The position numbers and the translations under genes are program-made. This document shows, piece after piece, positions 4,013-26,700 of a DNA stretch of 64,000 nucleotides (within the stretch, counting starts at the first letter, position 1; every line of letters begins with the position of its first letter). The DNA is from Nitrospirota bacterium (GTDB taxonomy: Bacteria; Nitrospirota; UBA9217), in assembly GCA_963790205.1 (NCBI GenBank), contig CAWBNQ010000008.1, forward strand, positions 1-64,000, written 5' to 3'. The notes beneath the pieces are model-generated. The model did not search any database and was not told where the DNA came from. It was given only the letters and a program-made list of their open reading frames with translations.

Positions 4013-4702
4013 CTACTGGGTGGCCGTCAGTTTTTCCACCGCCTCTTTTGCCGCTTTCTGCTCCGCTTCCTTCTTGCTCTTGCCAATGCCGCGTCCGGAC
4101 AACTGTCCCTTGATCCACACTTCCACTTCGAACTGTTTCTGGTGGTCGGGGCCGGTCTCGGAAGCGACCCGGTATTCGGGGAGCTGTTTGAGCCGCTCCT
4201 GGCAGAGTTCCTGGAGCTCGGTTTTATGATCGAGTGAAACGCGCGCGGCGCACGCTTTTTTTATGAGGTCCTCAAAGAACCGGATGATGAATGCTTCGGT
4301 GGCGTCCATGCCCCGATCGAGGTAGATGGATGCAATAAGCGCTTCGAGGCAATCGGCGAGCAGGGAATCCTTGTCCCTGCCGCCGGTCTGCTCTTCACCT
4401 TTGCCGAGCAGGAGGTGGTTGCCGAGCCCGATTTCCCGCGCGACCCCTGCAAGCGCGGGCTCGCTCACGACGGAGGCCCGGAGTCTCGAGAGGGTCCCCT
4501 CGGCCGAGTCAGGGCAGGTCTTCATGAGGTATTCGCTGACGATGAGATTGAGGACGGAGTCCCCGAGGAACTCCATCCGTTCGTTATGGTAGGGGACCTT
4601 GTTTTCGTTCGCGTAGGACTTGTGCGTAAGCGCGCGCTCGAGCAGTTCGGGGTCGCTGAACATATACGCGATTCGCCGCTGGATGTCCGAGAGGGGGGGC
4701 AT
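4013..4702 (-). CDS. rnc: ribonuclease III
   Basis: ALTHKSY, NERMEFLGDSVL signature, C-terminal dsRBD (KTELQE...GKSKKEAEQKAA). Confidence 0.97.
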   Translation of the reverse strand: MPPLSDIQRRIAYMFSDPELLERALTHKSYANENKVPYHNERMEFLGDSVLNLIVSEYLMKTCPDSAEGTLSRLRASVVSEPALAGVAREIGLGNHLLLGKGEEQTGGRDKDSLLADCLEALIASIYLDRGMDATEAFIIRFFEDLIKKACAARVSLDHKTELQELCQERLKQLPEYRVASETGPDHQKQFEVEVWIKGQLSGRGIGKSKKEAEQKAAKEAVEKLTATQ

Positions 4703-4703
4703 C

Positions 4704-5945
4704 TTACTTCCGGAACCGTCGGAACACGAGACAGGCGTTCGTACCGCCGAAGCCGAAGGAGTTCGACATGGCCACGTCCACCTGTACTTTTCTCGCCGTA
4801 TGCGGGATATAGTCCAGGTCGCACTCGGGGTCCGGGTTCTCGATGTTGATGGTCGGCGGAAGTATCCCGCGGTCCAGGGCGAGGACGGATATGACCGCCT
4901 CTACACCGCCGGCGGCGCCGAGCAGATGGCCGGTCATGGATTTGGTCGAACTCGCCGGTATCTTGTATGCATGGCCGCCGAACACGCTCTTGATGCCCAT
5001 GGTCTCGTACTCGTCGTTGTACTTGGTCGACGTTCCGTGGGCATTGATATACCCCATCTCCGCGGGCGCAATGCCGGCGTCATTGATCGCCATCTTCATG
5101 CACCGGGCCGCTCCCTCGCCGTTCGGCGCCGGCGTTGTCATGTGGTAGGCATCGCCCGAAAGGCCGTATCCCACGACCTCCGCGTAGATTCTGGCGCCGC
5201 GCTTCATGGCCGACTCCATCTCTTCGAGAATCACGACTCCGGACCCTTCCCCCATGACGAACCCGTCCCGCTCGGCGTCAAAGGGGCGGCTGGCGCGCTG
5301 CGGTTCGCTGTTCCGCGTGGAGAGCGCCTTCATGGCGTTGAAGCCACCCACACCGAGCGGACAGATGGTCGATTCCGTTCCGCCGGCGATCATGGCGTCG
5401 GCATCGCCGCGCTGGATGGTCTTGAACGATTCGCCGATCGAGTGGGTCCCGGTCGCGCATGCGGACACCACGCTGAGATTCGGGCCCTTCGCGCCGAACC
5501 GGATCGAGATGATCCCGGCTACTTCGTTGATGATGGTCATCGGGATAAAGAACGGCGTGATCCTGCGGTACCCTTTTTCGCGGTAGGCGTCGTGGACCCG
5601 CTCGATCGCAGGGAGTCCCCCCATGCCTGCGCTCACCATGACGCCGATGCGCTCGGCATTCTCCGGCGTGATCTTGAGTCCCGAATCGTCCATGGCCATC
5701 TGGCTTGCCGCGATCCCCAGGTGGATGAAGCGGTCCATCTTTTTTATCTCTTTCGGCTCGATGTACTTTTCCGGATCAAAGCCGTGGATCTCGCCGGCGA
5801 TCTGGGTCGGGACGGCCTTGTCATCGAACTGCGTGATGGGGCCGATGCCGGACTTGCCGTTGATCAGGCTTTCCCAACTGGTTTCCGTATCGAGGCCGAC
5901 GGGGGTGATCATCCCGATGCCCGTGACGACGACTCTTTTCTTCAA
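4704..5945 (-). CDS. fabF: 3-oxoacyl-ACP synthase II
   Basis: [41 protein letters not shown]. Confidence 0.97.
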
Positions 5946-6072: not shown

Positions 6073-6309
6073 TTACTTCGCCTTCGCCTTGATGTAATCG
6101 ACAGCGTTCTGCACCGTTGCTATCTTTTCGGCATCTTCATCGGGGATTTCCACGCCGAATTCCTCTTCGAGCGCCATAACGAGCTCAACAGTATCGAGCG
6201 AATCCGCGCCGAGATCGTTGACGAACGATGCCTCGGGTTTCACATCCCCTTCAGGCACGCCGAGCTGCTCGGAAATGATCTTTTTCACCTTTGCCTCTAC
6301 ATCTGCCAT
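6073..6309 (-). CDS. acpP: acyl carrier protein
   Basis: [20 protein letters not shown] phosphopantetheine motif. Confidence 0.98.
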
Positions 6310-6386: not shown

Positions 6387-7127
6387 CTACATGTACATGC
6401 CGCCGTTCACATGGATCACCTGGCCGGAAATGTAAGACGCCCAGGGAGAGGCGAGAAAGCGGACCGCGTTCGCTACGTCCTCGGGCGTTCCGAGCTTACC
6501 CAGGGGGATCTGCTTCGCGAGCTCGGTCCTGACGTTCTCGGACAGCGCCTGGGTCATGGCCGTGTCGATAAAACCGGGGGCCACGGCGTTGGCCGTGATG
6601 CCGCGGTTCGCGTATTCACGGGCGATGGTCTTGGTGAGACCGATAAGTCCCGCCTTGGACGCCACGTAGTTCGCCTGGCCGGCGTTGCCCATGGCGCCGA
6701 CGATCGAGGCGATGTTGATGATCGTGCCTCCCCGCTGCTTGCTCATATACCTGAGGGCGGCCTTTGTGCACAGGAACGCGCCTTTTAAATTAATGCTGAG
6801 CACGAGGTCCCAGTCCTCATCCTTCATGCGAAGAATGAGGCCGTCCCGGGTGATACCGGCATTGTTCACGAGGATGTCGATCCTTCCGAACTTTTCGACA
6901 ACCTGATCGATCATGGCCGTGACATCGGCTGATGCCGCGACGTTGGCCTTGAGGGCCAGCGACTTTCTGCCTTTGGTTTCGATGTCTCCCGCCGTCTTTT
7001 GCGCCGCTTCGAGGTTCACGTCGCAGATGGCCACATCGGCCCCGTCAATCGCAAGCGCAAGCGCGATGTCCCTGCCGATTCCCTGAGCTGCGCCGGTGAC
7101 CAGTGCGATCTTACCGTTTAAACTCAT
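6387..7127 (-). CDS. fabG: 3-oxoacyl-ACP reductase
   Basis: [30 protein letters not shown]; position in fab operon. Confidence 0.97.
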
Positions 7128-7149: not shown

Positions 7150-8083
7150 TTATAATCCTAAAGCGTGAAGCGTGTCGTTCATGCTCTTCTGGTCTTCGAC
7201 GTTCAATATCTTTGCGTCCTTGGCAATCCGTTTGACAAGACCCGAGAGCACCTTGCCGGGACCGATCTCGACAAAAGTGTCATAGCCGTCTGCGGCCATG
7301 TTTCTGATCGAGTCTTCCCAGTAAAGCGGGGAGCTGATCTGTTTGACGAGCGACGGCCTGAGCTCCGACGCCGTATGCAAAAACTTCGCATCCGCGTTGT
7401 TCACGATCGGAATGCGAAGGTCGTTGATTTTCACTTTTTCCAGTTCCCGCGCCAGCCGCTCGCCGGCCTTTTTCATCATGCCGCAATGGGACGGAACGCT
7501 TACGGTGAGGGGAACCACTTTTTTGGCGCCCGCGGCCTTCGCGAGCTCCATGGCTTTTTCCACTGCTTTTTTCTCACCGGCGATCACGATCTGGCCGGGG
7601 GAGTTGTAATTTGCAGGGCCAACTATACCATTTTTGGCCGCTTCATGGCAAGTTTTTTCTACGGCCTGCCGCTCCATGCCCAGAATGGCGGCCATAAGCC
7701 CTGTTCCCTCGGGAACGGACTCCTGCATGTAACGGCCGCGTTTCTGAACCAGCGCGACAGCGTCCGTGAACTCGAGGCCTCCCGCGGCCGTTATCGCCGT
7801 ATACTCGCCGAGGCTGTGGCCTGCGGCGGCGCCCGGCCGTAAGTCCGCGCCGTTCAAGGGGACGAAGGATGGCCATGCTCGCCGCGAGAATGGCCGGCTG
7901 TGTGTTTTCGGTGAGGTTCAGCTTTTCGACCGGGCCGTGCATGCAGAGTTGCGCAAGATCGTAGCCGAGCGCCGCGCTCGCGGTGTCGAAGACTTCCTTT
8001 GATTCCGCAAAATTTTCGATGAACTCCCTGGCCATGCCCGCGTACTGAGAGCCCTGGCCGGGAAAGATAAACGCAATCTTCAT
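7150..8083 (-). CDS. fabD: malonyl-CoA:ACP transacylase (one +1 frameshift near 7840, probable sequencing error)
   Basis: FPGQGSQY and TQPAIL in one frame; GHSLGEY, VSVPSH, EIGPGKVL in the next. Span is 3n+1. Confidence 0.93.
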
Positions 8084-8205
8084 TCGCTGACCTCGATGCA
8101 TGGATGTTGTATCTTTTGTTGCGGTGAAATTGAGCGTGTCTCGTGAGGCGTTCGGCGGGAGACGAGTTTACCCCTTACGCTCTCACTTCTTCCGCCTGAC
8201 GGCCG

Positions 8206-9399
8206 TCAGCCCCTCAGTTCCTTGAACTTCCTGATCATGACCGGCAGCACTTCCATAACGTCGCCCACGATGCCGTAGGTGGCAACGCTGAAGATGGGGG
8301 CATTCGGGTCCTTGTTGATCGCAATGATAACATCGGACGACTGCATGCCGGCGAGGTGCTGGATGGCGCCGGAGATGCCGGCCGCAATGTAGAGCTTGGG
8401 GCAGACGGTCTTGCCGGTCTGGCCGACCTGGTGGGAATAGGGGACCCACCCTTCGTCCACTGCGCCCCTGGTGGCGCCGACGGCTCCGCCGATGGTCTTT
8501 GCGAGTTCTTCGAGGAGCTGGAAGTTTTTTACGCTGCCCATGCCGCGGCCGCCTGCAACGATGATGTCGGCTTCGCAGATGTTGACGGTCTCGGTCAGTT
8601 CCTCCACGGTCTTGATGACCCTGGTGCGCATGTCTCCCGCGGTCGTGAACTTAACGTCGATGACGTCGCCTTTGCGCGAAACATCGGGCACCGCCTTTTT
8701 CATCACTTTGTGCCGGACCGTGGCCATTTGAGGCCGGTGGTTCGGAGTGACGATGGTCGCCATGATGTTTCCGCCGAAAGCGGGGCGGGTCTGATGAAGA
8801 TTGCCTGTCTCTGCGTCGATATCGAGCATCGTGCAGTCGGCGGTGAGGCCGGTGTAGAGTTTTGCGGCCACTTTGGGAATGAACGAGCGGCCGATCGCCG
8901 TGGCCCCCGCGAGAATGATCTCGGGTTTGTGGAGTGTGGCGAGCGTGGTCAGAACGGCGCTGTAAGAGTCGTCGTTAAAGTCCTTGAGCGCGGGGTCGTC
9001 GGCAACGTAGACAATGTCGGCCCCATGGGCGATGAGTTCCTGTGCCTTGTTCCTGATGCCGTGACCGATGAAGACGGCCGAGAGCTTCGTCTTGCGCTTG
9101 TCCGCGAGCTTTCTTCCTTCTCCCAGCAGTTCGAGCGCAACGCTCGAGATGCCGCCCTTGTGCTGCTCGGCAAAGACCCAGACTCCTTTATACGCCGAGA
9201 GGTCCGTTGCCGCGGCCACGGCTTCTTCGCCGGTCCGCTCGATGGCCTTGAATTCGCAGGCTTCGACGCAGGCCCCGCACAGGGTGCAGCTCTCGGTTAT
9301 GAAGGCCTTGCCTTCGCGCATCTCGATAGCGCCGAAAGGGCAGCTGGTCACGCACGTCTCGCAGCTCGTACATTTGTCAGGGTTGACTTTAATGCTCAC
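8206..9399 (-). CDS. etfA: electron transfer flavoprotein alpha subunit with N-terminal 2x[4Fe-4S] ferredoxin domain
   Basis: [12 protein letters not shown] and [11 protein letters not shown], then [30 protein letters not shown]. Confidence 0.95.
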
Positions 9400-9471
9400 G
9401 GATCACTCCTTGAAAAAATGATCCACGATCCATGATGAAGGCCCTTGTCCTGCATCCGGGATCGTGCATCG

Positions 9472-10257
9472 TTATACCACCGCTTGTTCTTTCAGCTTCC
9501 TTGCCACCAGATCGACCTGTTGCTCGATCGTACCGGTGAGGATCTCCCGCTGACCGCGCGGTACAGGCGGGAAGATCCTCACAACCTTGGTGGGAGAGCC
9601 TTTGAGCCCGAGCCTGTTCTCGTCAGCGTTTATGTCTTTTGCGCTCAACGTCGCGACCTTGAGGCTCTTGGCCTTCATTTTTCCCTTGAGCGACGGCAGA
9701 CGGGGCTCGTTGATCTCCTTCACCACGGTGATGAGCGCGGGGAGGGAGGTTTCCACCACGTCATAACCCTCGTCCATCATGCGTTCCGCCGTCATTTTCC
9801 CGGTTTCTACTTTTTCTATCTTCCTGATATAGGCGACAAAGGGGATGCCGAGCATGTCCGCGGTCTCGGGCCCCACCTGCGCCGTATCGCCGTCAATAGC
9901 CTGTTTGCCCGCGATCACGAGGTCGAAATTCCCGATCTTCTTGATTCCCATCGCGAGAGTATAGGACGTGGCCCAGGTATCCGCTCCGGCAAAGGCCCGG
10001 TCGGAAACGAGCACGACGTCATCTACCCCCATGGCCACGGCCTCTTTGAGGGCCTCGGCGGCCTGCGGCGGCCCCATGGTCACGGCGGTCACCTTGCCGC
10101 CGTGCTGTTCGCGCAGCCGGAGCGCCTCTTCGATGGCGTACCGGTCAAAGGGATTAATGATACTGGGGACACCGTCGCGGATGAGCGTGTTCGTCTCGCG
10201 ATTGATCTTGACCTCCGACGTGTCCGGGACCTGCTTGATCATGACAATGATATTCAT
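9472..10257 (-). CDS. etfB: electron transfer flavoprotein beta subunit
   Basis: KQVPDT, NPFD, DRAFAGADT, GKQAIDGDTAQVGP, GSPT. Confidence 0.95.
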   Translation of the reverse strand: MNIIVMIKQVPDTSEVKINRETNTLIRDGVPSIINPFDRYAIEEALRLREQHGGKVTAVTMGPPQAAEALKEAVAMGVDDVVLVSDRAFAGADTWATSYTLAMGIKKIGNFDLVIAGKQAIDGDTAQVGPETADMLGIPFVAYIRKIEKVETGKMTAERMMDEGYDVVETSLPALITVVKEINEPRLPSLKGKMKAKSLKVATLSAKDINADENRLGLKGSPTKVVRIFPPVPRGQREILTGTIEQQVDLVARKLKEQAVV

Positions 10258-10265
10258 TGCTGTCT

Positions 10266-10384
10266 CCAAAATTCCAAATAACAAATTTCAAATAAACTCC
10301 AAATCCCAATTACCCAATTTCGAAACGTTTGGTATTTCGATATTGGAATTTATTTGCGATTTGGTGCTTGTAATTTGGAGCTTG
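10266..10384. repeat. AT-rich intergenic palindrome with ~7-nt periodicity
   Basis: CCAAAT/CAAAT-rich left arm mirrored by ATTTG/ATTTGG-rich right arm around AAACGTTT. Confidence 0.7.
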
Positions 10385-10387
10385 TTT

Positions 10388-11545
10388 CTATTTTTGTCTC
10401 GTCGCTTCCTTGATCATGTCCAGGGCGATGACATTGCGCTGGATCTGGTTCGTGCCCTCGTAGATCTGGAGGATCTTGGCGTCGCGCATCATTTTCTCGA
10501 CCGGGTATTCCTTCATGTAGCCCGAACCGCCCATGACCTGTACTGCGTCGATGGTCACCTTCATGGCGGTGTCGGTCGCGAAAAGCTTGGCCATGGCAGA
10601 GGCCCGGGAGACGTCCTTTGCGCCGCTGTCGATAAAGCGGGCGACCGAGTACACGAGCGCGCGCGCCGCTTCGGTCTGGGTCTGCATGTCGGCGAGCATG
10701 TGCTGAACGGCCTGGAACGACGTGACGGGCTGCCCGAACTGGACCCGCTGCTTCGCGAACTTGAGGGCTTCGTCGATGGCGCCCTGCGCCACGCCCACGC
10801 CCTGGGCGCCCACGCCGGTCCGGGAGCTGTCGAGGGTCTTCATGGCCACAATGAATCCCATGCCTTCTTTAGCGATAAGGTTTTCCCTGGGGATTCGGCA
10901 GTTGTTGAAGATGAGCTCGGTCGTGGAGGATGCGCGGATGCCCATCTTGTTCTCTTTTTTCCCGAAGGTGAAGCCGGGCGTGCCTTTCTCAACGATGAAG
11001 GCCGACGCGCCGCGGGGGCCCTTGGACCTGTCGGTGATGGCGATGATCGTATAGACGTCGGCTTCGCCGCCGTTCGTGATCCACTGCTTGGTGCCGTTGA
11101 TCACGTATTCATTGCCTTCGAGCCTGGCCGTGGTCTGTACGCCGCTGGCGTCGCTGCCCGCGTTGGCCTCGGTGAGCCCGAATGCCACGAGTTTTTTGCC
11201 TGCTGCGATATCGGGCAGGTACTTCTTTTTCTGCGCATCGGAGCCGTTGAGCAGGATGGGGTAAGTGCCGAGCGCATTGGCCGCAAAGCTCGTTGAAACG
11301 CCGAGGCATGCCTTCGATAGTTCCTCGACGGCGATACAGAGCTCGAGGCTTTTCTTCCCGAGACCGCCGTACTCTTCCGGGATATAGATGCCGAAGAGGT
11401 CCGCCTGGGCCATGGCTTTCATGATGTCCCTGGGAAATTTGTTTTGCTCGTCGAGTTCAGCGCGTACCGGCACGATTTTTTCTTCGGCGATCTGCCGCGC
11501 GAGGTCCCGGATCATTATCTGTTCTTCTGTCAGCAGGTAATCCAT
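10388..11545 (-). CDS. acyl-CoA dehydrogenase (butyryl-CoA dehydrogenase-like)
   Basis: AFGLTEANAGSD, NGTKQWITNG, KMGIRAS, RVQFG, MRDAKILQIYEGTNQIQR; GGAGG RBS 6 nt before ATG 11545. Confidence 0.93.
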   Translation of the reverse strand: MDYLLTEEQIMIRDLARQIAEEKIVPVRAELDEQNKFPRDIMKAMAQADLFGIYIPEEYGGLGKKSLELCIAVEELSKACLGVSTSFAANALGTYPILLNGSDAQKKKYLPDIAAGKKLVAFGLTEANAGSDASGVQTTARLEGNEYVINGTKQWITNGGEADVYTIIAITDRSKGPRGASAFIVEKGTPGFTFGKKENKMGIRASSTTELIFNNCRIPRENLIAKEGMGFIVAMKTLDSSRTGVGAQGVGVAQGAIDEALKFAKQRVQFGQPVTSFQAVQHMLADMQTQTEAARALVYSVARFIDSGAKDVSRASAMAKLFATDTAMKVTIDAVQVMGGSGYMKEYPVEKMMRDAKILQIYEGTNQIQRNVIALDMIKEATRQK

Positions 11546-11703
11546 TAACATCCTCCAATGATATGATAAATATCAAATCTCAAACAACAAATAAATCAAA
11601 TTTCTACATCTCAAATAATCTTACACTTTCGTCGTTGAATTCCGAACAACTGTGTTTAGGGTTTGATTGTCACTCGGCGCTTGTTCATTGGCGCTTTCTG
11701 TAT

Positions 11704-12685
11704 TCACCACCGCATCAGGGCCGATGCCCAGGTAAGACCTCCTCCAAAAGCTTCGAACAGAAGGAGGTGGTTCTCTTTTATTCTCCCGTCCCGGACCGCT
11801 TCGTCCAGGGCCATGGGGATCGAGGCCGCCGAGGTATTGCCGTATTTGTGGACCGTGAGCACGACCTTTTCCATCGACATGTTGAGCCGCTGCGCCATGG
11901 CCTGGATGATGCGCAGGTTCGCCTGGTGCGGCACGAGGAAGTCGATCTCTTCGGGTTTGACCTTGTTGTATTCCAGCGCTTCCTGTACCGCGCTTTCGAG
12001 CGCACGCACCGCCGTTTTGAAGGTCTCGTTCCCCTTCATTTTGATGAAGTGCATCCGCTTGCGCACCGTGTCGTGCGTGGCCGGATGCAGGGCGCCCCCG
12101 GCCGGGAATATTCAGAAGGTTTCCGAGCGATCCATCCGAATGCAGGTGCGTGGACAGCACCCCGCGCTTGCCGGCATGCCGCTGAAGTACGACTGCGCCG
12201 GCGCCGTCTCCGAAGAGAACGCAGGTGGTGCGGTCCTCCCAATCCACGAACCGGGAAAGGGACTCCGCTCCTATCAGGAGAATGTTCTGATAGGTCTCCG
12301 ATTTTATGAAGGCATTGGCAACCGACAGTCCGTAGATGAATCCCGAGCAGGCGGCATAGATGTCGAAGGCAGCCGCATTCTTTGCTCCGAGCTTTTCCTG
12401 TACCATGCAGCCCAGGTTCGGCATGATCATGTCCGGTGTGGTCGTCGCCACGAGGATCAGGTCCAGTTCCTGCGCCGGGAGCTTTGCAGCCTTGAGCGCC
12501 TTGTGGGCCGCTTCATAGGCGAGGTCGGAGGTGGACTGCCCTTTTTCAGCTATCCTGCGTTCTTTAATGCCGGTACGCTCGGTGATCCATTCATCGCTCG
12601 TGTCGACGAGCTTCTCCAGATCGTGATTGGTGATGACTTTTTTCGGGGCATAGGACCCGGTCCCCGTTATCCGTGCATGGATCAT
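11704..12685 (-). CDS. fabH: 3-oxoacyl-ACP synthase III (one +1 frameshift near 12105, probable sequencing error)
   Basis: [19 protein letters not shown] in one frame; PHQAN, GNTSAAS, FGGGLTW in the next. Deleting one C restores IPAGGALHP. Confidence 0.93.
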
Positions 12686-13696
12686 CTTGTCTTAGTGAGC
12701 TCCATATTCTTTTCAATGTCCTCGTGAATATGCTTGTTGACCTCGCTCTTCGCGAGTTCGGAGGCGACGCGGATGGCATTTTTAATTGCCCGGTCCGTCG
12801 AACGTCCGTGGCTGATGATGCTGATGCCGTTTATGCCGATAAGGGGCGCACCGCCGTACTCGGCGTAATCGACGCGTCGCTTGAGGGCCCGGAAGGCCGG
12901 CCGCATCATGAAATACCCAAGCTTCCGGATCAAGTTGTCGCCCACGTTCTCCCGAAGAATGAGATCGATGGATTCTGCCACGGCCTCGGAGACTTTCAAC
13001 ACGACGTTGCCGATAAAACCGTCGCAGACGACCACGTCCGCCCTGCCGGACATCACATCACGGCCTTCGACGTTGCCGATGAAATTGAGCGAGGTCTCGG
13101 TCAGGAGCTTAAACGCCTCTTTGGTAAGTTCGTTCCCCTTGGTCGCCTCTTCACCGATGGAAAGAAGGCCGACGCAGGGGTTCGGGATTCTTGAGCAGGT
13201 ACTTTGCGTAGACCTCACCCATGATGGCGAACTGGAGGAGATGGCTCGGCTTGCAGTCCACGTTGGCCCCCACGTCCAGGATGATGGAGGTCCCTTTGAT
13301 CGTGGGCATGAACGTGGCGATGGCGGGCCGTTCGACCCCTTCTAGGGAGCCCAGCACGAACAGCGAAGTGGCCATGGCCGCGCCCGTGTGTCCTGCGCTG
13401 AATACGGCAACCGCTTCGCCGCTCTTGACGAGTTCATTGGCCACGCGGATCGACGAGTCTTTTTTCCTGCGAAAGACCGTGGCCGGAGAATCGAGCATGT
13501 CCACGACCTCGGTGGCATTCCGTATTTCTATGGGAAGCGTTTTGGCATGGGGGTATTTTTTCAGTTCTGCCTGGATGGTCTGCTCAATGCCGACCAGGAT
13601 GATGCCGACCCCGAATTCCCTCGCCGCGTGCACTGCCCCTGCAACGACGGCATGGGGCGCGTTGTCCCCTCCCATGGCATCAACGGCAATTTTCAT
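12682..13696 (-). CDS. plsX: phosphate acyltransferase PlsX (one +1 frameshift near 13188, probable sequencing error)
   Basis: IAVDAMGGD, SAGHTGA, LDVGAN, then GLLSIGEE, NFIGNVEG, CDGFIGN, YGGAPL, SHGRS. Confidence 0.93.
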
Positions 13697-13780: not shown

Positions 13781-13964
13781 TTATATCTGCTGAACAGTTA
13801 CGACCTCGCGGCCGTTGTAGGTGCCGCAGGACAGGCAGGCGTGGTGGGGCTTCTTGACCTCCTGGCACTGCGGGCAGACAGAGAGATTTATGGGCCGTGA
13901 GGAACTTGTGAGTGCGCCTCTTGTCCCTGCGGGATTTGGATGTTTTGTGTTTTGGATTCGCCAT
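13781..13964 (-). CDS. rpmF: 50S ribosomal protein L32 (one +1 frameshift near 13893, probable sequencing error)
   Basis: [19 protein letters not shown]; deleting one C gives [25 protein letters not shown] and a stop at 13781. Confidence 0.93.
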
Positions 13965-14045: not shown

Positions 14046-14561
14046 TCATTTTTTAAACAAATCTTTTAAAACGGAGAACGCTCCGAACTCATCCCGCTTG
14101 TCTTTTTTGCAGCCGCAATCGGCCTTATTGAGGTCCGTTCCGCAGACCGGGCAGAGGCCCTTGCAGTCCGGACTGTGGACCGGCACCATCGGGATGGAGA
14201 TAAGCAGCTGTTCTTTTACATAGTCCAGGGGTTCTATCTCCTCGCCCTGATAGAACTCCATTTCGAGTTCGCCCCCGGCGAGTTCATGCTCGGGTGCCGT
14301 GCCCATGGCGCTCACGGGGGCGAGGTCAATATTCAGTTCCGTGTCTATGCCATAGACAAAGCTTTTCAGGCAACGGCTGCACTCGAGTTGCGGCCCCGCC
14401 TGGACCCGGCCGCGGATATGAAGGTTCCCGCCTCCTGTCGGCCTGATGCTGAGAACTGCTGTAAATGCTGTGGACGCTGTTCCCGTGTCGAAGAGGTCGA
14501 GCTTTCGGGCTAATTCCAGTGTAAGCCCCTCGGGTGGTATGTCATTGATTTTGATGGCCAT
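14046..14561 (-). CDS. yceD: YceD/DUF177 metal-binding protein
   Basis: ECSRCL, CKGLCPVCG..LN..CGC; canonical position upstream of rpmF. Confidence 0.92.
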   Translation of the reverse strand: MAIKINDIPPEGLTLELARKLDLFDTGTASTAFTAVLSIRPTGGGNLHIRGRVQAGPQLECSRCLKSFVYGIDTELNIDLAPVSAMGTAPEHELAGGELEMEFYQGEEIEPLDYVKEQLLISIPMVPVHSPDCKGLCPVCGTDLNKADCGCKKDKRDEFGAFSVLKDLFKK

Positions 14562-14591: not shown

Positions 14592-14620
14592 ATTATATAG
14601 AGTAGCTCCCGTTTTGTCAA
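14592..14620 (-). promoter_or_regulatory. consensus sigma70 promoter of the yceD-rpmF-fab operon
   Basis: Minus strand TTGACA-17 nt-TATAAT. Confidence 0.75.
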
Positions 14621-17842: not shown

Positions 17843-18891
17843 ATGCGCGTGAAGACCTTCTACCGGGTTTTAAGACTCATCTCGGCAGTCGTGCTATTTT
17901 TCTTTATCTGGACGTTCGGCCCGGTATGGCAGGCCGTTGCTTTTGCAGCAACGCCACAGAGTCAAGGGCCAGGGGGCAAGGGCCACATAGAAGCGCGCGA
18001 TACGCCCATACAAACGGCATCAGAACGGTTTGAAAAGGCGCTGGAAGGGATTCGCGCGGGCGTCTCGAAGGCCGGAGAGAAAGCGGGGAGGGGCGAGGAT
18101 GTGACCGCTGAGGTCGCAGGAATAAAGGCAAAGAAAGCGGAGATTGAAAAGATCGATGCAGACCTCAGGGCCGAATTCGCTGCAACCGAAAAGAAGCTCA
18201 AAGACGCCAAGCTGCCGCAGGTCATCCTCGACCGGCAGGCAGCGTTCGTCAAGAACTACGACAAGAACCTCACTCAGCTCAAATCCGAGATCGACGACAT
18301 CGACAAAGCAAAAACTGCGACAGACCTCAAGGCCAGGATCGAAACAGCGCGGCTGCATCTTGAAAAGGTAAAGCCTGCCAAAAAGCACGTCCCGCTCGAT
18401 CCAAACAAGCTGCCGAACAGAATGGTCAAGGCCAGGGCAAGAATGCCAAGGCTCAGGAAAGAAGATTTCGAAAAGGATTTTCTCCGGCAGAAAAAGACAA
18501 CACATAGTTCATCGCTCATAGCTTTAAATCATGAACTAATATCTACGAGCCATGAGCTATTTCATTTCGCATTCCGAAATCCGAAATCGGGAATTGAGCA
18601 CAAGCCCATTCTCGTCGCTTCCAACGGACCATTGACCGGCCTGTTATCATCTGATTCTAAACCCGAAACACTCGCATTGCCTTCCTCTGTGAAATCTATG
18701 CCTTCTGTGGCAAATGAAGTCGCTTTGAATCTTGAATCCGGCACATTGAATTTGGCAGCGGTCACGACCGTGGACGCGCCAACTGCCGACGATCTCTCCG
18801 AGACTACGGAAATCCAGTTCACGGACGCCATCCGCGCCAAGGCCCAGGAACTCGGCTACAGTCCTGTCAAAATATACGAGTATGTTAGGAA
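17843..18891 (+). pseudogene. secreted transglutaminase-like (putative polymorphic toxin) protein, 5' part, interrupted by IS4
   Basis: Sec-type signal peptide (MRVKTFYRVL...AVAFA), coiled-coil region, then DLSETTEIQFTDAIRAKAQELGYSPVKIYEYVRN. Joins 20277 in frame once the IS is removed. Confidence 0.85.
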
Positions 18892-20267
18892 CACACCCGT
18901 CCAAGATAGGATTTGAGTAATTGCAGGGGAAGCCTCAATCGGATAAAGTAGGTTTGTCGAGGACCTAAATTTACCGATGGAGGACATCCCCGTGAACAAG
19001 TGTAGCAGTATCTTCGGTCAGATTCTACAGATATTTTCGCATCAGGATTTTGTCAGGGCTGTACGAGAAACACGGGCTGAAAAAGGGGTAAAGGGATTCA
19101 GTTGCTGGGGCCAGTTTGTGGCGATGGTGTTCTGTCAGTTGGGACAAGCCCACTCGCTGCGAGAGATATGCGGCGGATTAGCGACGTGCCTGGGCAAACT
19201 CAAACACCTTGGAATTGACGCAGCACCCAAACGCTCCACCTTGGCCTATGCCAACGAACATCGGCCTTGGCAATTGTACCAGAAGGTTTTTTATCAGCTG
19301 TTGGCAAAATGCCGGGTTCTCGCACGAGGGAAGAAGCCGTTTCGGTTCAAGAACAAGCTGTTCAGCCTCGATGCCACCCTGATTGAGCTTTGCGTCACCT
19401 TGTTTGACTGGGCAAAGTACCGCCAAACGAAAGGAGCAATCAAGCTTCACCTGTTATTGGACCACGACGGATATCTTCCGGTCTTCTGCAGTATGACCGA
19501 GGGGAACGTGCACGAAGTAAACATCGCGCATACGCTGAAGTTCCCCAAAGGCTCTATTCTGGCAATCGACCGGGGATATGTGGATTATGAACAGTTCGCA
19601 CGGTGGACGGAGGCCGGCATCTTCTTCGTAACGGGAGAAAAAGACAATGCCGCTTTCAGGGTGATCGAAACAAGACCGGTTCCTGAAAACCGGAATATCA
19701 TCAAAGACCAGCTCATTGAACTGACGGGCTACGAATCAATCAAGAAGTGCCCGCATACCTTGCGACGGGTAGAGGTATGGGACGAAGAAAATGAGCGAAC
19801 GATTGTTCTCTGGACGAACCACCTCGCCTTCGGCGCGACGACCATAGCCAGCATTTACAAGGACCGCTGGCAGATCGAGATATTTTTCAAGACGATCAAG
19901 CAGAATCTGAAGATCAAGACGTTCGTGGGAACGAGCCAGAATGCCTTGCTGACACAGATTTGGACAGCATTAATTGCCATCCTGGTATTGAAGTACCTGA
20001 AGTTCCGGTCAACGCTCGGGTGGTCGCTGTCGAACCTGGTTGCCATGCTTCGTTATAATCTCTTCACTTACAGAGATTTATGGATGTGGCTGGATAATCC
20101 GTTTGAAACGCCGCCGATCGTGCCGTCTGCGGAGCAATTGGTAATGAGATATCGGTAATTGGACAGCAGAATGAGGAACCTGAATCTATGAAAAGGGATT
20201 TACCTGTCTAAAAACCTTGATTGGCAAGGGTGGGCGTTAGGGAATCAGACTATCTTGGACAGCAGTG
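18892..20267 (+). mobile_element. IS4-family insertion sequence, 1376 bp, intact
   Basis: IRL CACACCCGTCCAAGATAG (18892-18909) and IRR CTATCTTGGACAGCAGTG (20250-20267), 15/18 match. 9-bp direct repeat TGTTAGGAA at 18883-18891 and 20268-20276. Confidence 0.93.
18977..20158 (+). CDS. IS4-family DDE transposase (DUF4372-type N-terminus)
   Basis: FSCWGQF, SLREI, RSTLAYAN, LDAT, KLH, DRGY, YKDRWQIEIFFK (YREK). True start may be GTG 18992 after GGAGG. Confidence 0.95.
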   Translation: MEDIPVNKCSSIFGQILQIFSHQDFVRAVRETRAEKGVKGFSCWGQFVAMVFCQLGQAHSLREICGGLATCLGKLKHLGIDAAPKRSTLAYANEHRPWQLYQKVFYQLLAKCRVLARGKKPFRFKNKLFSLDATLIELCVTLFDWAKYRQTKGAIKLHLLLDHDGYLPVFCSMTEGNVHEVNIAHTLKFPKGSILAIDRGYVDYEQFARWTEAGIFFVTGEKDNAAFRVIETRPVPENRNIIKDQLIELTGYESIKKCPHTLRRVEVWDEENERTIVLWTNHLAFGATTIASIYKDRWQIEIFFKTIKQNLKIKTFVGTSQNALLTQIWTALIAILVLKYLKFRSTLGWSLSNLVAMLRYNLFTYRDLWMWLDNPFETPPIVPSAEQLVMRYR

Positions 20268-20276
20268 TGTTAGGAA

Positions 20277-22629
20277 CAACATCGAATTCGTTCCCACCTA
20301 CGGCAGCATCCAGGGCGCGGACATGTGCCTCCAGACAAAGCAGTGCAACGACTTCGATACTGCGTCACTTCTAATCGCACTTCTTCGGGCCTCGAATATT
20401 TATGCGCACTATTCCTATGGAACTATCGAAGTCCCAATTGATAAAGTCATGAACTGGGCAGGCGGTTTTACAGATCAGACATCAGCATTGAATTTCATCG
20501 CTAGTGGTGGGATTCCTGTTACAGGCCTCAGATCTGGAGGCATTATATATGCTGCACAGATGGAACACGTCTGGGTCAAAGCCTGGATAGACTATATTCC
20601 CTCACTTGGGGCAATTCAGAAACAAGGAAATACATGGATTCCGCTTGATGCCAGTTTTAAACAGTATTCCTACACAGATGGGGTAGACTTACAAGCAGCC
20701 GTACCCTTCGACGGCCAGAATCTTGCCGATCAAATAAAGGCGAGTGCCACTATCAACGACCAGGAAGGATATGTAACGAACGTCAACTCTTCACTCATTC
20801 AAACAGCATTATCGGATTACAACGCCCAGCTCGAGAACTATGTGGCGCAGAACTTCCCAAATACCACTGTTGGCGATATTCTTGGGAAAAAAGAAATCAT
20901 CCTGAAATCGCAACCTATCCTTCCAGCCAGTCTGCCTTATAAGGTAGTCGTGATCGGAACAGAAACAAGCGCGGTCCCGGATCAGCTCAGGCACAAGATC
21001 ACCATTCAACTTACGGATACTGATAATCCTGGGAGCCCTGCCTTTACCTATACGACCAGCTTGCCTCAATTGGCCGGGAAAAGATTCACGATCAGCTATA
21101 ATCCCGCCACTGATGCAGACCAAACGACTATTAATAGTTATGTTGAACAATACGCTACGAGCATACCCGCCTATCTTGTGCAATTTAAACCGGTTCTGAA
21201 AATAGAAGGCACCACAGTCGCTACCGGTGCGACCGTCGGAATGGGGAAAGCCCAGAACCTTACGATTTCTGTTGTCTCTCCGAATAGCACTGAAATGGTC
21301 ACTCACAACCTGTTGGCTGGAGACTATTCAGCGATCGGCATAAATCCTTCGAAGATCAACCTTGATGTTCTCCAAAACAGAATCAATAAAAGTGACTTCT
21401 CCGAACCCGTCGGCGAAATGCTTCACCAGACAGCCCTTTCATACTGGGCTGAGGCGGATGCGTTCAACGATATTACCGCGAAGACATTGCGCGTAGACAG
21501 CTTCCGGCACCCGTCAGAACTTGCGGCCTCAGCCAAAGTATCTGTCACGTATATTTGGGGTGTTCCGAGTTCAGCTGCGTATAATCACATAAACATTGAT
21601 GTGAAATTTGACAATCAGACGGTTTTCAGCAAGTCGGCAGACAAGACGAAAGAGTTTAATTATATGCAGCAATCTGGTGTCAACTCTTCTTTCCTCGAAG
21701 GCGCAATTATGGACCAACTTTATGGAAGGACTATTGGTGACAGCATTTCTGCTGTAACAGCGCTGAAGGCGGCAAATGATCAAGGCATCCCAATCTTTAA
21801 AATTGATTTGTCAAATATTACGGTGATACTGCCGAATCTCCAGATGACAGATGCTATCAAGACTGAAATATCGAATGCAATTAATGGGGGGCTTACGGTT
21901 CAGATACCGCAGACGAACATCACGCAATCCGGCTGGACTGGCGTGGGTTATATCGTTTCTAACCCAACAGATGGGAGCGGTGCGTACAGAATTAGTGGTG
22001 GCTTGAATGGAGGAGATAGCAGTACAAATACAAGTACCGTGTATCCTATAGCACCAGTGCCGGCAACGGGTGTTGGAGCAATGATTCTTGGATCTATAGC
22101 GGATAGTAGCCAAATTATGCTCAAGGTCGTTGGGGGTGTTATTGTAGGAATTGAGTTACCTGCTTGGTTAGTGATAGGAACGATAACAGCGTTTGTACTC
22201 GCCTTGATCGTTGTAATATCGGATGCCATTTCGAAAAGCAGGTCTCCTGAGGATTGGATAACACTACGTCACTATACAAAATATTTTGTAGTGCCTATAA
22301 TTTCTGTCATGGGATTAGAATCGGATACTGGCCAAATATTCCTGACCGATCTGCAGTTGTCTCCAGGTGGTTCAAGGCCGGATGGCACTCCAAACAATGT
22401 TTACATTGCAAATGCTCTCGAACTCATGGATAAAAATGGTAATAGAGATACCTCAAAGGGAACCGGCTACCTTGAATTACAGATAAATAGGGCAGCATTT
22501 AATGGACAGCCTCATATATTGAAACCGTGTGCAATACAGGACGTTCAACCGTGCAATGAATGGATTTTTCCGTTTCCTTATCTCGAAATTAACACATATC
22601 GAGTAAAATTAATAACAACGTATCCATGA
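20277..22629 (+). pseudogene. secreted transglutaminase-like protein, 3' part, with hydrophobic linker and C-terminal ADP-ribosyltransferase-like (HYT) domain
   Basis: PTYGSIQGA, DTASLLIALLRA, EHVWV, WIPLDASFKQY, GAYRISGGLNGG, a hydrophobic stretch, then LRHYT...IFLTD...YLEL...NEW. Confidence 0.8.
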
Positions 22630-22644
22630 TGAAGGAGTCTAATT

Positions 22645-23661
22645 ATGAGAAAATTTGCGGAAGCGAACGGCCCAACAGCGCTATATACAGCACAAAATTA
22701 TCTTTTTGCAGTAGGTCGGGAAAAAACAGTAGAAATTTATGACGTCACTGTTAAGGAATTACCTGCTCATGTTGGATCTGTGCCTGTTCCGAATGTTGAG
22801 TATGCGATTAGGCTTCTTTTAGAGTATAAGAAAAATCAGTTTATCTTTGCTTCCAGTTATATTGGATCCTATCTCGTAGATATCAGCAATTTATCCCAAG
22901 TAGCAATATCAAAAGTCTTGTCAATTGCCCCAATGAAGATGCAAGCATGCAAAGAAGATTATTTTATAGTGGCTTCAACGACGCGTGGCGGGATATTTCA
23001 ATTTGTACAAGACACTGAAATGAAAGAGACAAGCTTCATAGATAAAAGCCTATGGGATTTTTTGCTTTTCAATGACACTCTTTTCTGCGCTTGTTCAGAA
23101 GCCGGATTCAAAGTTTTTGATATTTCCCGCTTGAAAAAACCTGTGCTCCTGTCACAGCCACTTGGCAGTTTTTTTTGTACAAGCCTTGCACCTTTAGACA
23201 AAAATACAGCTGTCGTTAAGGACGAGCGAGGATCAATTTATTTTGTGGATATAACAACTCCGGCAAAACCGAGACAACTATCGCAAATAGAGGGCGCGTT
23301 ATATCCATATAAGAGTTTTTTTGTTAGTTATCCTTATTTAATTGTTCGTATGAAAGATGACGATAGGCACATGATTAAAGTTTTCGATTGCTCAAAGCCA
23401 ACTAATCCCAAATTAGTCTTTACTTATGCCGCGCCACATATCGTTTACGTTACCTTCAAAAGCCCTTATTTCGCAGGGTGGGGACTTCAGCAGGATGTAG
23501 TGCAGTCAAAATCTAGCTTTGAAATCATGAAAATTGATAAAGAAGGAGAACTCCAAAAAGTAAAGTCGATAGCTGAACCAGTACAGGTGTATTCTGCAAT
23601 TCTTATGGAAGAGCATGCTTATGTTGCGAGAGATGATGGAATATTCGTCATGCCTCTTTAA
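22645..23661 (+). CDS. LVIVD-repeat beta-propeller protein, candidate immunity protein
   Basis: Repeated V(F/Y)D(I/V)S/T..P units (DISRLKKPVLLS, DITTPAKPRQLS, DCSKPTNPKLV); no signal peptide; very AT-rich; AAGGAG RBS; 15 nt after the toxin-like stop. Confidence 0.7.
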   Translation: MRKFAEANGPTALYTAQNYLFAVGREKTVEIYDVTVKELPAHVGSVPVPNVEYAIRLLLEYKKNQFIFASSYIGSYLVDISNLSQVAISKVLSIAPMKMQACKEDYFIVASTTRGGIFQFVQDTEMKETSFIDKSLWDFLLFNDTLFCACSEAGFKVFDISRLKKPVLLSQPLGSFFCTSLAPLDKNTAVVKDERGSIYFVDITTPAKPRQLSQIEGALYPYKSFFVSYPYLIVRMKDDDRHMIKVFDCSKPTNPKLVFTYAAPHIVYVTFKSPYFAGWGLQQDVVQSKSSFEIMKIDKEGELQKVKSIAEPVQVYSAILMEEHAYVARDDGIFVMPL

Positions 23662-23701
23662 AGAAATTGGGAGACTACGGGATATGCGTTCAGGAGGTCG
23701 T

Positions 23702-26700
23702 ATGCTAAAGCGGATTCTATTTGGAATCATCCTTATATTTTTGTCGGCAAGGGCAGGTTTTGCCCAGCCAGCCACAGTGGCATCCGGCATAAACTGGCTC
23801 ATCGCAAATCAGAACGCCGATAAGAGCTGGGGCGGAACTTCATCATTGGTGACGCCGTTTAATACGACAGCCGCAGCCGTCTCAGCTTTGAAAATGTGCG
23901 GCAATACCGGATCAGCCGCTGTTGATGGTTTGAATTGGCTGAACGGACAAACTCCTGATTCTGTCAATTACACTGCTGATAGACTTCTAGCAAATGCCCT
24001 CGCCGGCCTTGACACTACAAGTGGTCTAGGCCAACTCGTCACTTGGAAAAATAATATAGATGGCTCGTGGGGATTAGATGGTGAGTATTCAAATGATATT
24101 GTGGAAATCGCACTTACCCTACAAGCTCTTCATGCCGCAAATTATTCCGACTATTCTAGCCTATTCCAAACAATCAACTTTCTTACAGCAAATCAAAATT
24201 TAGATGGTGGGTGGGGTGCCTCGACCGGAGATGCCAGCAACATTTACGTCACGTCAATGGTCCTCCGGGTACTGTCCGCAAACAGCACCGTCTTCTTCAT
24301 CAATCAAAACATCATCTCTCAAGCCTCTGCCTTCCTGCTCGCCCATCAAAACACCGACGGGGGGTTCGGGGATTCTCCTTCAACTGTTTACGCTACGGCT
24401 CTATCTCTCATGTCCCTGATCGAAAGCGGCCAAGGGAGCACGCAGACCATTTTGAACGGCATCACGTACCTCGCCTCATCCCAACTCGCTGACGGCTCCT
24501 GGAACGACGATCCCTATTCAACCGCACTTGCTCTCCAGGCCCTTGCAGAAGCACGACCGAACCTTACGGTCTCAACCTCCGGGATCACCTTCTCGAATAC
24601 CATGCCCCTATCCGGGGCCACGACGACCATCAGCGCCGTGATAAGCAATACGGGATACGACAACGCATCGAACGTGGTCGTCCGTTTCTATTTCGGCGAT
24701 CCAGCGGTCGGCGGAACTCAGATCGGCACGGACCAGATACTTCCGTTCATAGCTCTTGGCTCATCGGCCCAGGCGTCAATCACAACGAGTTTCAGCGACA
24801 CCGGTGCTAAGACCATCTTCGTCGTCGCTGACCCTGATAACCTCATATCCGAAACAAACAAGCTCGACAACAAAGCCTCAGCCCGGCTCTGGGTGGCAAC
24901 CGGCCCGGACCTCGCGGTTTACTCCGCGGACCTTATACCCTCAACCTACGTTCCAACCGCGGGAACCGCGTTCACGCTCAACTACACCATAAGAAATCTA
25001 GGCGAGAGCCCTGCAGGTGCATTTACCGCGGCCTTGTATGACGGCGACCCGGCAAACAACGGCGTTCTCCTCCAGACCGCCGATATCTCCGGCATAAACG
25101 GAAGCGACATGCGTGCCGGGACCTTAGGCGTCACGCTCACGACGAACGGCTCCCATACGCTCTACCTTGTCGCCGACTCCGGGAACGTAATCACCGAGAT
25201 ATCCAAGACCAACAACACCGCCTCGGTCACGGTGAACGTGGGCGGGACGCTCACCCAGGCCGATCTGACAATTTCACCCACGGACATTATTCTAAATCCC
25301 TCCCGGCCCCATGCAGGCGACACGGTCCAGATCGCCGCAAATGTCCATAACACCGGCGCTGATGCGGCAAATAACTTCACCGTCGAGATCTTCGACGGCG
25401 CGCCCGAATCGGGCGGCACGCTCATAAACAGCCAGACGATCTCCCTTGTCGCCGGCGGGTCGCAGCTTGTAATCGCCAGCTGGGCCATACCCACGGGCAT
25501 CCATGATGTTTACGTGATCCTCGACCGGGCCAACCAGATCGTCGAATCGAACGAGAACAACAACCGCGCGTCAGTCAGGATCATGACCGACATGGTGGAC
25601 ATAGAAATCTCCGCCACAGACCTCGTCTTTAGCCCTGCCCATCCTGTCTCCGGAGACGCCGTAGCCTTCACCATCACCGCGCACAACACCGGCATCAAGG
25701 ACACCGGCCCGTTCAACCTTGCGCTCTATAACGGCGACCCGAGCGCAGGGGGAGCACTTTTAAATACGTATGCAGTAGGGAGTATACAGGGGGATGGGAC
25801 AACTGCGTTCACGTACACCTTCATTGCGTCGCCCCAGGTTTACCGGTTCTATGCCGTGGCTGACCCCGAAAACGTGGTAGCCGAGATGTACGAAGACAAC
25901 AACACCGCCGTCCGCTCGCTCACTATCAAAGCACCGGGCGAGACCCTGGGCCCCGACCTCGTTCCGATCAAGGTCGACCTCACGGACACCACAACCGATC
26001 CCCAGACCCTTGCCATCTCCGGCACGGCCCACGTCACTTTCCAGAACATCGGCGACGACAAGATAACCGCGCCCTTTAACGTCATCATTTTCGAGGACAA
26101 AGACGGAGACGGCAAATATACCGCGGGCGTGGATAACCTCCTCGGCACAGCCACGAACACGATGACCCTCTGGCCCGAAGACGCCGGCATGATCGATCTG
26201 CCGCTTTCCGGCGCGGTCACGTTCCTGCACTCGCCGCTCTACGCCTTCGTGGACTCAGGCGACGCCATCCTGGAGCAGAACGAGGACAACAATATCCTCG
26301 TCTCCTGCAAAGACTGCCAAGTCGTGCCTACGAACCCGATACAACCAAAAGTCAAGTGGAAGTGGGGGCTGCCTAGTGCCACTTGGTTGTTGTTGCCACA
26401 ACCTACAATCATGCATTTGCGGGACACGAACGGTGACGGAAAGATAGATCAAAATGATGTTCCCGACATCGTACTCGTTACGCTGCAAACTTATTATTAT
26501 TTTGGGAAAATCTGGGCCTTCAAGGGTGATACGGGGGAGAACTACTTTTCACTCTACGATACGAACCATCCGGTGGATACGCTCTCCTATCTTTCGTCCG
26601 GCGACATCGACGGTGACGGGAAACCAGAGATCATTTTTGAAACTCCAAACCCCATCTATGGTTATGGATTGGTCGTCTACAACAACGACTGGACCTTGAA

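Follow-up and report, generated by a model that had tools for sequence, protein, structure and literature searches.

The first 64,000 nucleotides of contig CAWBNQ010000008.1, from a bacterium of the phylum Nitrospirota (assembly GCA_963790205.1), were analyzed as a single stretch, hereafter called the window. On its minus strand lies one run of genes, yceD-rpmF-plsX-fabH-acd-etfB-etfA-fabD-fabG-acpP-fabF-rnc plus a radical SAM gene, in which genes of type II fatty-acid synthesis (FAS II) flank a trio, acd-etfB-etfA, encoding an acyl-CoA dehydrogenase (ACAD)-family flavoprotein and the two subunits of an electron-transfer flavoprotein (ETF). A preliminary description had reported the order from plsX to rnc, the common orientation and the short gaps, all of which we could confirm, with intergenic gaps of 72 to 158 bp around the trio. 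It had also proposed an ETF-linked, possibly bifurcating enoyl-acyl carrier protein (ACP) reductase. Our analysis supports that proposal: on the basis of conserved synteny, mutual exclusion between the module and known reductases within the Nitrospirota, and exchange of the genes filling the slot, Acd-EtfB-EtfA is probably the FAS II enoyl-ACP reductase of these anaerobes and unrelated to FabI, FabK, FabL and FabV, a role that rests on genomic evidence and to which we assign a probability of roughly 0.78.

The synteny turned out to be conserved, as the proposal demanded. Within the host's family, acd lies directly downstream of fabH at 29/29 loci and is followed by etfB-etfA at 28 of them, the remaining locus stopping at a contig end. 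The full operon order is kept at 10 of the 11 longer family loci and at all four loci of families f3 and f12 (genomes, loci, contigs and families carry working labels beginning with G, L, C and f), and the arrangement fabH-acd-etfB-etfA-fabD occurs in families f1, f3 and f12. Among 17 further Nitrospirota loci, acd is found near etfB-etfA-fabD at eight and as plsX-fabH-acd at two. Since fabH adjoins acd at every family locus, and since at 46 of 80 orthologue loci no more than 5 kb separates acd from a core fab gene (these loci being the 80 best among at least 567 genome matches to Acd, all with at least 66% identity), the arrangement is not a product of chance.

Elsewhere in the phylum, the same slot has other occupants. 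The order fabH-FabK-fabD was read in four Nitrospirota genomes (three of family f2 plus G042), with all four FabK proteins scoring above the TIGR03151 cut-off, and fabH-FabL-like-fabD at the three loci read from family f16 (L201:1162-1977 of G156, L202 and L204). The f16 slot protein, a short-chain dehydrogenase/reductase (SDR), has FabL as its best match in both NCBIfam (146 bits against a cut-off of 328) and the PDB (3OIC), and no ACAD match was obtained in any of the 18 f16 genomes. Judging from the slot contents read in relatives, the space between fabH and fabD thus holds FabK, a FabL-like gene or acd-etfB-etfA. Because the trio is placed where relatives keep a known enoyl reductase, it probably performs the last step of elongation.

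The distribution of these genes was followed across 201 Nitrospirota genomes, host included, each at least 90% complete; a FabI was called strong at 280 bits or more on the FabI model, and FabK was counted after scoring 10 candidates per genome. An Acd orthologue is present in 110 genomes, 108 of them with one copy at 72 to 100% identity and two (G004 and G203) with a split copy. The FabI model matched in 67 genomes (65 at or above 280 bits), FabK in four, one of which also has FabI, and the FabL-like gene in 21, its holders outside f16 including f20, f28 and G226. Not one of the 110 Acd genomes carries a strong FabI, FabK or FabL-like gene, and 89 of the 91 genomes lacking Acd carry FabI, FabK or the FabL-like gene, the exceptions being G214 and G174, the latter a 90% complete genome of the host's family. 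Seventeen families are represented among the Acd genomes and 11 among the others. A divergent FabI-like gene, at about 30% to FabI, was seen in one Acd genome (G142, L205:3715-7119). The anticorrelation with known reductases that had been suggested as a check therefore holds within the Nitrospirota (0/110 overlap), whereas exclusivity is incomplete outside the phylum. Two side observations concern the SDRs met here: the FabL-like proteins probably form an unannotated enoyl-ACP reductase subfamily, and the divergent SDR of G142 sits in a separate cluster with an ACP, a FabF-like, a FabX-like and a large ligase-like gene.

The absence of fabI, fabK and fabV from the window, as first described, extends to the whole host genome (4.34 Mb, 98% complete), in which a search for FabI, FabK, FabL and FabV found none, the FabV search being one without a true positive control. 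Nine SDR matches, including the operon's own fabG, do not rank as FabI or FabL, and the FabI, FabK and FabL-like proteins of relatives, used as queries, gave distant matches only. FabV (PF12241) was found neither in the host nor in any of 69 genomes, with the sensitivity of this search hinted at only by weak matches of the model to the FabL-like gene in two of five other genomes. The host does carry accA, accB, accC, fabZ and Rnf-like genes, a single EtfB and two further ACAD-type genes that are unrelated to Acd.

A second genome, G150, consists of one contig of 1,818,996 bases (1.82 Mb; 99% complete) and was read whole in 91 pieces. It has accA, accB, accC, plsX, fabH, fabD, fabG, fabF, fabZ and acpP (accD was not among the queries), one ACAD and one EtfAB, the latter in the order etfB-etfA-fabD. 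Searches of the whole chromosome revealed no FabI, FabK, FabL, FabX or YhdH, and no thiolase, crotonase, 3-hydroxyacyl-CoA dehydrogenase or CoA-transferase, with the same queries detecting fadA and fadB in the host. Its two SDRs are FabG and a classical YxxxK SDR; three zinc-alcohol-dehydrogenase-family proteins and three phenylacetate-CoA-ligase-like genes are also present. In a quick tree, the Acd of G150 clusters with that of a Thermodesulfovibrio sp. record. RNase III and Rnf subunits gave no tblastn match in G150 with the queries used.

With PF02771, PF02770 and PF00441 all above cut-off, Acd belongs to the acyl-CoA dehydrogenase superfamily, and the trio as a whole matches ACAD, ETF and Fer4 families only, with no homology to the SDR or FMN TIM-barrel proteins represented by FabI, FabK, FabL and FabV. 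The predicted structure of Acd (pLDDT 92) superimposes on 4L1F with a TM score of 0.94. Its catalytic Glu365, in a Y-E-G motif at the SCAD/MCAD position, aligns with that of Bcd and is invariant in 59/59 orthologues. Helix E runs in gapless MCAD register, with Ser86 and Ala90 where MCAD has Gln95 and Glu99; at position 90, 58 of the 59 orthologues have Ala and one has Gly, and both positions stay small across the family, which may deepen the pocket for long chains, as in VLCAD. Conserved basic residues include Arg180 (59/59) and Lys/Arg238 (57/59). The gene is single-copy and conserved to nearly the same degree as its neighbors (91%, versus 92% for FabG and 94% for ACP, over 13 family loci), and Nitrospirota records contain Acd with 88 to 95% identity. 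A complex prediction with two Acd chains and AcpP scored 0.00, which counts neither for nor against an interaction.

ETFs were reportedly classified by Garcia Costas 2017. The preliminary description had pointed to an EtfB motif shared with bifurcating ETFs and to a CarE-like N-terminal domain carrying two [4Fe-4S] clusters on EtfA, and both are there: GKQAIDGDTAQVGP is present in the window EtfB, and EtfA, whose best solved match is CarE, has two CxxCxxCxxxC motifs, both kept in 71/72 homologues. EtfB contains DGDTAQVGP (122), RxFxG (87) and SPT (221), found respectively in 77 (allowing one A-to-G variant), 70 and 74 of 77 homologues, and Arg205 of EtfA, a contact to the bifurcating FAD, is invariant (72/72). 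According to a passage of PMC9232219, these three EtfB motifs and the EtfA arginine are tied to bifurcation; every bifurcation motif tested in the window EtfAB is kept. In two closely related genomes, one of them of Omnitrophota, etfB and etfA are separated by an open reading frame of about 280 codons without a Pfam match (L138:10043-10888 and L142).

By analogy with Bcd-EtfAB and CarCDE, NADH would pass a hydride to the EtfB flavin, from which one electron would travel via the EtfA flavin to the flavin of Acd and the other via the [4Fe-4S] domain of EtfA to ferredoxin. The overall reaction would then be enoyl-ACP + 2 NADH + 2 oxidized ferredoxin → acyl-ACP + 2 NAD+ + 2 reduced ferredoxin, a stoichiometry modeled on the Bcd-EtfAB scheme as given in a passage of PMC5691135. 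We infer that the trio works in the reductive direction, and, if it is a reductase at all, the conserved motifs make bifurcation likely. ACP as the carrier, the chain range and bifurcation, taken jointly, come out a little better than even.

Outside the Nitrospirota, the best 80 matches to Acd include Bacillota, Desulfobulbales, Syntrophorhabdus, Margulisbacteria, Omnitrophota, Verrucomicrobiota/Lentisphaerae and others, with a core fab gene within 5 kb at 28 of 54 loci. At fab loci, the module follows fabH, fabF, rnc or plsX, precedes fabD or stands head-to-head with plsX, and beta-oxidation genes adjoin it at none of the 80 loci. FabI and FabK were searched for in 50 of the 54 genomes (FabL-like genes were not searched separately there). 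Of 26 genomes with a fab-adjacent module, 18 have neither FabI nor FabK, and seven of these also lack any FabK/FabX-family match; among the 24 others, FabI was found in six, FabK in two, a divergent FabI-like gene in two and none of these in 14. In G073, with a chromosome of 1.14 Mb, the order is fabG-acpP-fabF-acd-etfB-x-etfA, the sole SDR match is FabG, and one weak, unclassified PF03060 match was obtained; G255 likewise gave a weak PF03060 match. At two Syntrophorhabdus-like loci (L160 and L164) the order is plsX-acd-fabD-fabG-acpP, and both fabH and the etf genes are absent from the locus.

Several observations weigh against assigning enoyl-ACP reduction to the trio. Its genes do not always travel together: acd stands alone at seven of those 17 additional Nitrospirota loci, and it does so too in G039 and G048, where an EtfA orthologue with 60 to 61% identity lies elsewhere in the genome. 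Families and kin are not independent, so a small number of events may lie behind the partition of genomes. On Acd, no surface feature specific to ACP was found, the invariant Arg180 being present in the CoA enzyme Tfu_1647 as well, and some non-bifurcating ETFs are close relatives of bifurcating ones, as stated in a passage of PMC9232219. Among the 26 fab-adjacent genomes outside the phylum, one has a 240-bit FabI-like protein, one a 383-bit FabK-like protein and six a divergent FabI-like SDR; such a divergent gene accompanies the module in Desulfobulbales (L181 to L186). Finally, six Bacillota have a strong FabI and two genomes an above-cut-off FabK, the module not being fab-adjacent at the locus seen. 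These eight genomes form part of one clostridial clade in the Acd tree, a quick version with four outgroups only that shows a tight subfamily and this clade, not the direction of transfer. Because some module genomes outside the Nitrospirota carry FabI, FabK or FabI-like genes, exclusion there is strong but not absolute.

A further protein that must be weighed is the sole substantial PF03060 match in the host, a FabX-like FMN/[4Fe-4S] protein (C3:111256-112314; L001:6245-7432), which might be the true enoyl-ACP reductase and leave Acd-EtfAB an accessory role in lipid metabolism. It shares its Pfam family with FabK, reaches 104 bits against the FabK model, whose cut-off is 453, occurs in 36 of 37 family genomes, and has PF03060 counterparts (E 1e-28) in 80 of the 110 Acd genomes. 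We nevertheless consider this quite improbable: its closest structure is H. pylori FabX, described in a passage of PMC8626469 as a dehydrogenase/isomerase, which serves unsaturated fatty acids; in the host, the gene is found apart from the fab operon; in f5, 6/6 genomes have it alongside FabI; and, with 10 candidates scored per genome, PF03060 at E 1e-28 is missing from 30 of the 110 Acd genomes, including 10/10 of f15, 6/7 of f17 and 4/4 of f22. When all candidates were scored in five of these negative genomes, weak partial matches only were recovered, and G150, read whole, has no FabX. As side observations, the host gene, 74 to 87% conserved within the family, has a DsrE2-like gene directly downstream; FabX reportedly depends on oxygen, an electron acceptor that an anaerobe would lack.

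The trio might instead run oxidatively, by confurcation, and serve beta-oxidation as its acyl-CoA dehydrogenase or the making of unsaturated chains as an acyl-ACP dehydrogenase. ACADs mostly oxidize, the Margulisbacteria fab operon contains both the trio and a FabX-like gene, and the host has a distant, orphan fadD-fadA-fadB cluster (C2:45381-50759) without an ACAD of its own. (A candidate partner of that cluster lies at C14:173052-181076, where a large fusion of FixC-like and ferredoxin parts precedes frames resembling ACAD and ETF, possibly with frameshifts.) Yet G150 has the trio and no beta-oxidation gene, such genes neighbor the module at 0/80 loci, and an oxidative role would leave 110 Nitrospirota genomes without a known enoyl reductase, which makes this reading very unlikely, although a dual reductive and oxidative role in the host genome is possible. 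The alternative offered by the preliminary description, that the trio reduces short enoyl-CoAs to supply acyl-CoA primers for FabH, draws on two points: in families f1, f3 and f12, as in a number of other phyla, the trio comes directly after fabH, and its nearest solved homologues are short-chain CoA enzymes. This too we hold to be quite improbable, since elsewhere the module follows fabF or rnc, precedes fabD alone, or takes the form plsX-acd-fabD without fabH at the locus (L160 and L164), since G150 has no thiolase/crotonase route to an enoyl-CoA, and since primer supply leaves the exclusion of FabI, FabK and FabL unexplained. As the enoyl-ACP reductase otherwise missing from these anaerobes, the trio is the best candidate.

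Each cycle of fatty-acid synthesis in bacteria requires enoyl-ACP reduction, a step for which over half of the sampled Nitrospirota genomes have no known enzyme. If the assignment as a reductase is correct, the trio closes this gap in many anaerobic phyla and represents a further class of reductase with no relation to FabI, FabK, FabL and FabV. For the crotonyl-/butyryl-CoA couple, a passage of PMC5691135 gives −10 mV versus −320 mV for NADH; if the trio also bifurcates, energy that this step normally dissipates would be conserved in the form of reduced ferredoxin, with as many as seven such reductions for each C16 chain, and electron bifurcation would be placed within core lipid anabolism. 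That the trio couples each elongation round to ferredoxin reduction and is the sole reductase of about half of the Nitrospirota and of lineages within many other anaerobic phyla is a view toward which we lean slightly. Since cultured hosts of the module appear to exist (for example, Thermodesulfovibrio and Desulfocapsa relatives), direct testing is possible.

The features of the operon are collected in the table below. A consensus scan for promoter-like sites gave seven, with 5.0 expected by shuffling, and the number of terminator-like sites was at chance level. Single surplus bases interrupt rpmF (near 13886), plsX (near 13183), fabH (near 12104) and fabD (near 7831). They are missing from contigs of three public runs (two studies) and from three related genomes and are therefore assembly errors; the reading of plsX, fabH and fabD as pseudogenes was discarded. 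Both spacers flanking acd (window 10269-10376 and 11568-11619) contain AT-rich imperfect palindromic repeats with 49-nucleotide arms that are 73% complementary. Farther away, the contig starts with an ISL3-family transposase (14-1276), and the region 17843-31825 holds a transglutaminase-like gene apparently split by a DDE transposase (18977-20158) and then a 2736-residue CARDB/FG-GAP protein with a squalene-cyclase-like repeat.

Table. Features of the fatty-acid synthesis operon, with positions in the window.
Feature	Position	Strand	Remarks
Promoter-like site, sigma-70 type (TTGACA-17-TATAAT, 12/12)	14592..14620	minus	upstream of yceD; candidate operon promoter; consensus match only
yceD (DUF177)	14046..14561	minus	weak NCBIfam match; conserved first gene of the operon in relatives
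rpmF (ribosomal protein L32)	13781..13964	minus	named by sequence and position, no family scan
plsX	12682..13696	minus	one surplus base near 13183
fabH	11704..12685	minus	one surplus base near 12104
acd	10388..11545	minus	385 residues; ACAD-family flavoprotein; proposed catalytic enoyl-ACP reductase subunit
etfB (ETF beta subunit)	9472..10257	minus	closest solved chain CarD (6FAH)
etfA (ETF alpha subunit)	8206..9399	minus	ferredoxin domain (2x[4Fe-4S]) at the N terminus; Arg205; CarE (6FAH) is the nearest solved chain
fabD	7150..8083	minus	one surplus base near 7831
fabG	6387..7127	minus	TIGR01830 above cut-off
acpP	6073..6309	minus	—
fabF	4704..5945	minus	TIGR03150 above cut-off
rnc (RNase III)	4013..4702	minus	—

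In the literature searched, which left supplements and most subscription journals outside its coverage, no paper describing the module as an enoyl-ACP reductase was found; passages of PMC6085437, PMC4478896 and PMC13691511 make no mention of it, and one general sentence in PMC8360864, citing a review, attributes enoyl-CoA or enoyl-ACP reductase activity to some members of the ACAD family. With FabI and FabL (SDRs), FabK (an FMN TIM barrel) and FabV, the trio would have the reaction in common, and in relatives it shares its operon slot with FabK and the FabL-like gene; unlike them, it is of unrelated fold and has three subunits, FAD and Fe-S clusters and a possible coupling to ferredoxin reduction. 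The acryloyl-CoA reductase AcrABC (NCBIfam NF042970-2) is the top NCBIfam match for Acd and EtfA and the second for EtfB, but all scores are below the cut-offs (476 of 640 bits for Acd, 241 of 475 for EtfB and 364 of 600 for EtfA), and the genomic context of the trio is lipid synthesis.

Caffeyl-CoA reductase CarCDE of Acetobacterium woodii (6FAH) provides the best solved matches for EtfB (CarD; E 2e-76) and for EtfA (CarE; E 1e-129; the match extends over the N-terminal 2x[4Fe-4S] domain), with no large insertion in the alignment, and has the same three-part layout and the enoyl-thioester reduction proposed for the trio. Acd, however, is no nearer to CarC (324 bits, rank 23 among solved ACADs) than to many other ACADs, Bcd scoring 424 bits, and the trio sits in a fatty-acid synthesis operon, where its substrate would be ACP bound and its role anabolic. 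Bcd-EtfAB of Clostridioides difficile and Acidaminococcus fermentans (5OL2, 4L1F and 4KPU) supplies the best solved matches for Acd (52 to 53% identity; TM 0.94) and has the catalytic Glu and the bifurcating-ETF motifs in common with the trio. In contrast to Bcd-EtfAB, thiolase, crotonase and hydroxyacyl-CoA dehydrogenase genes neighbor the trio at 0/80 loci and are lacking in G150 (the host has its distant fadA-fadB), helix E of Acd follows MCAD without the one-residue insertion of Bcd, and a ferredoxin is fused onto EtfA. In its working the trio would resemble CarCDE and Bcd-EtfAB, yet by partner and context it is outside those families.

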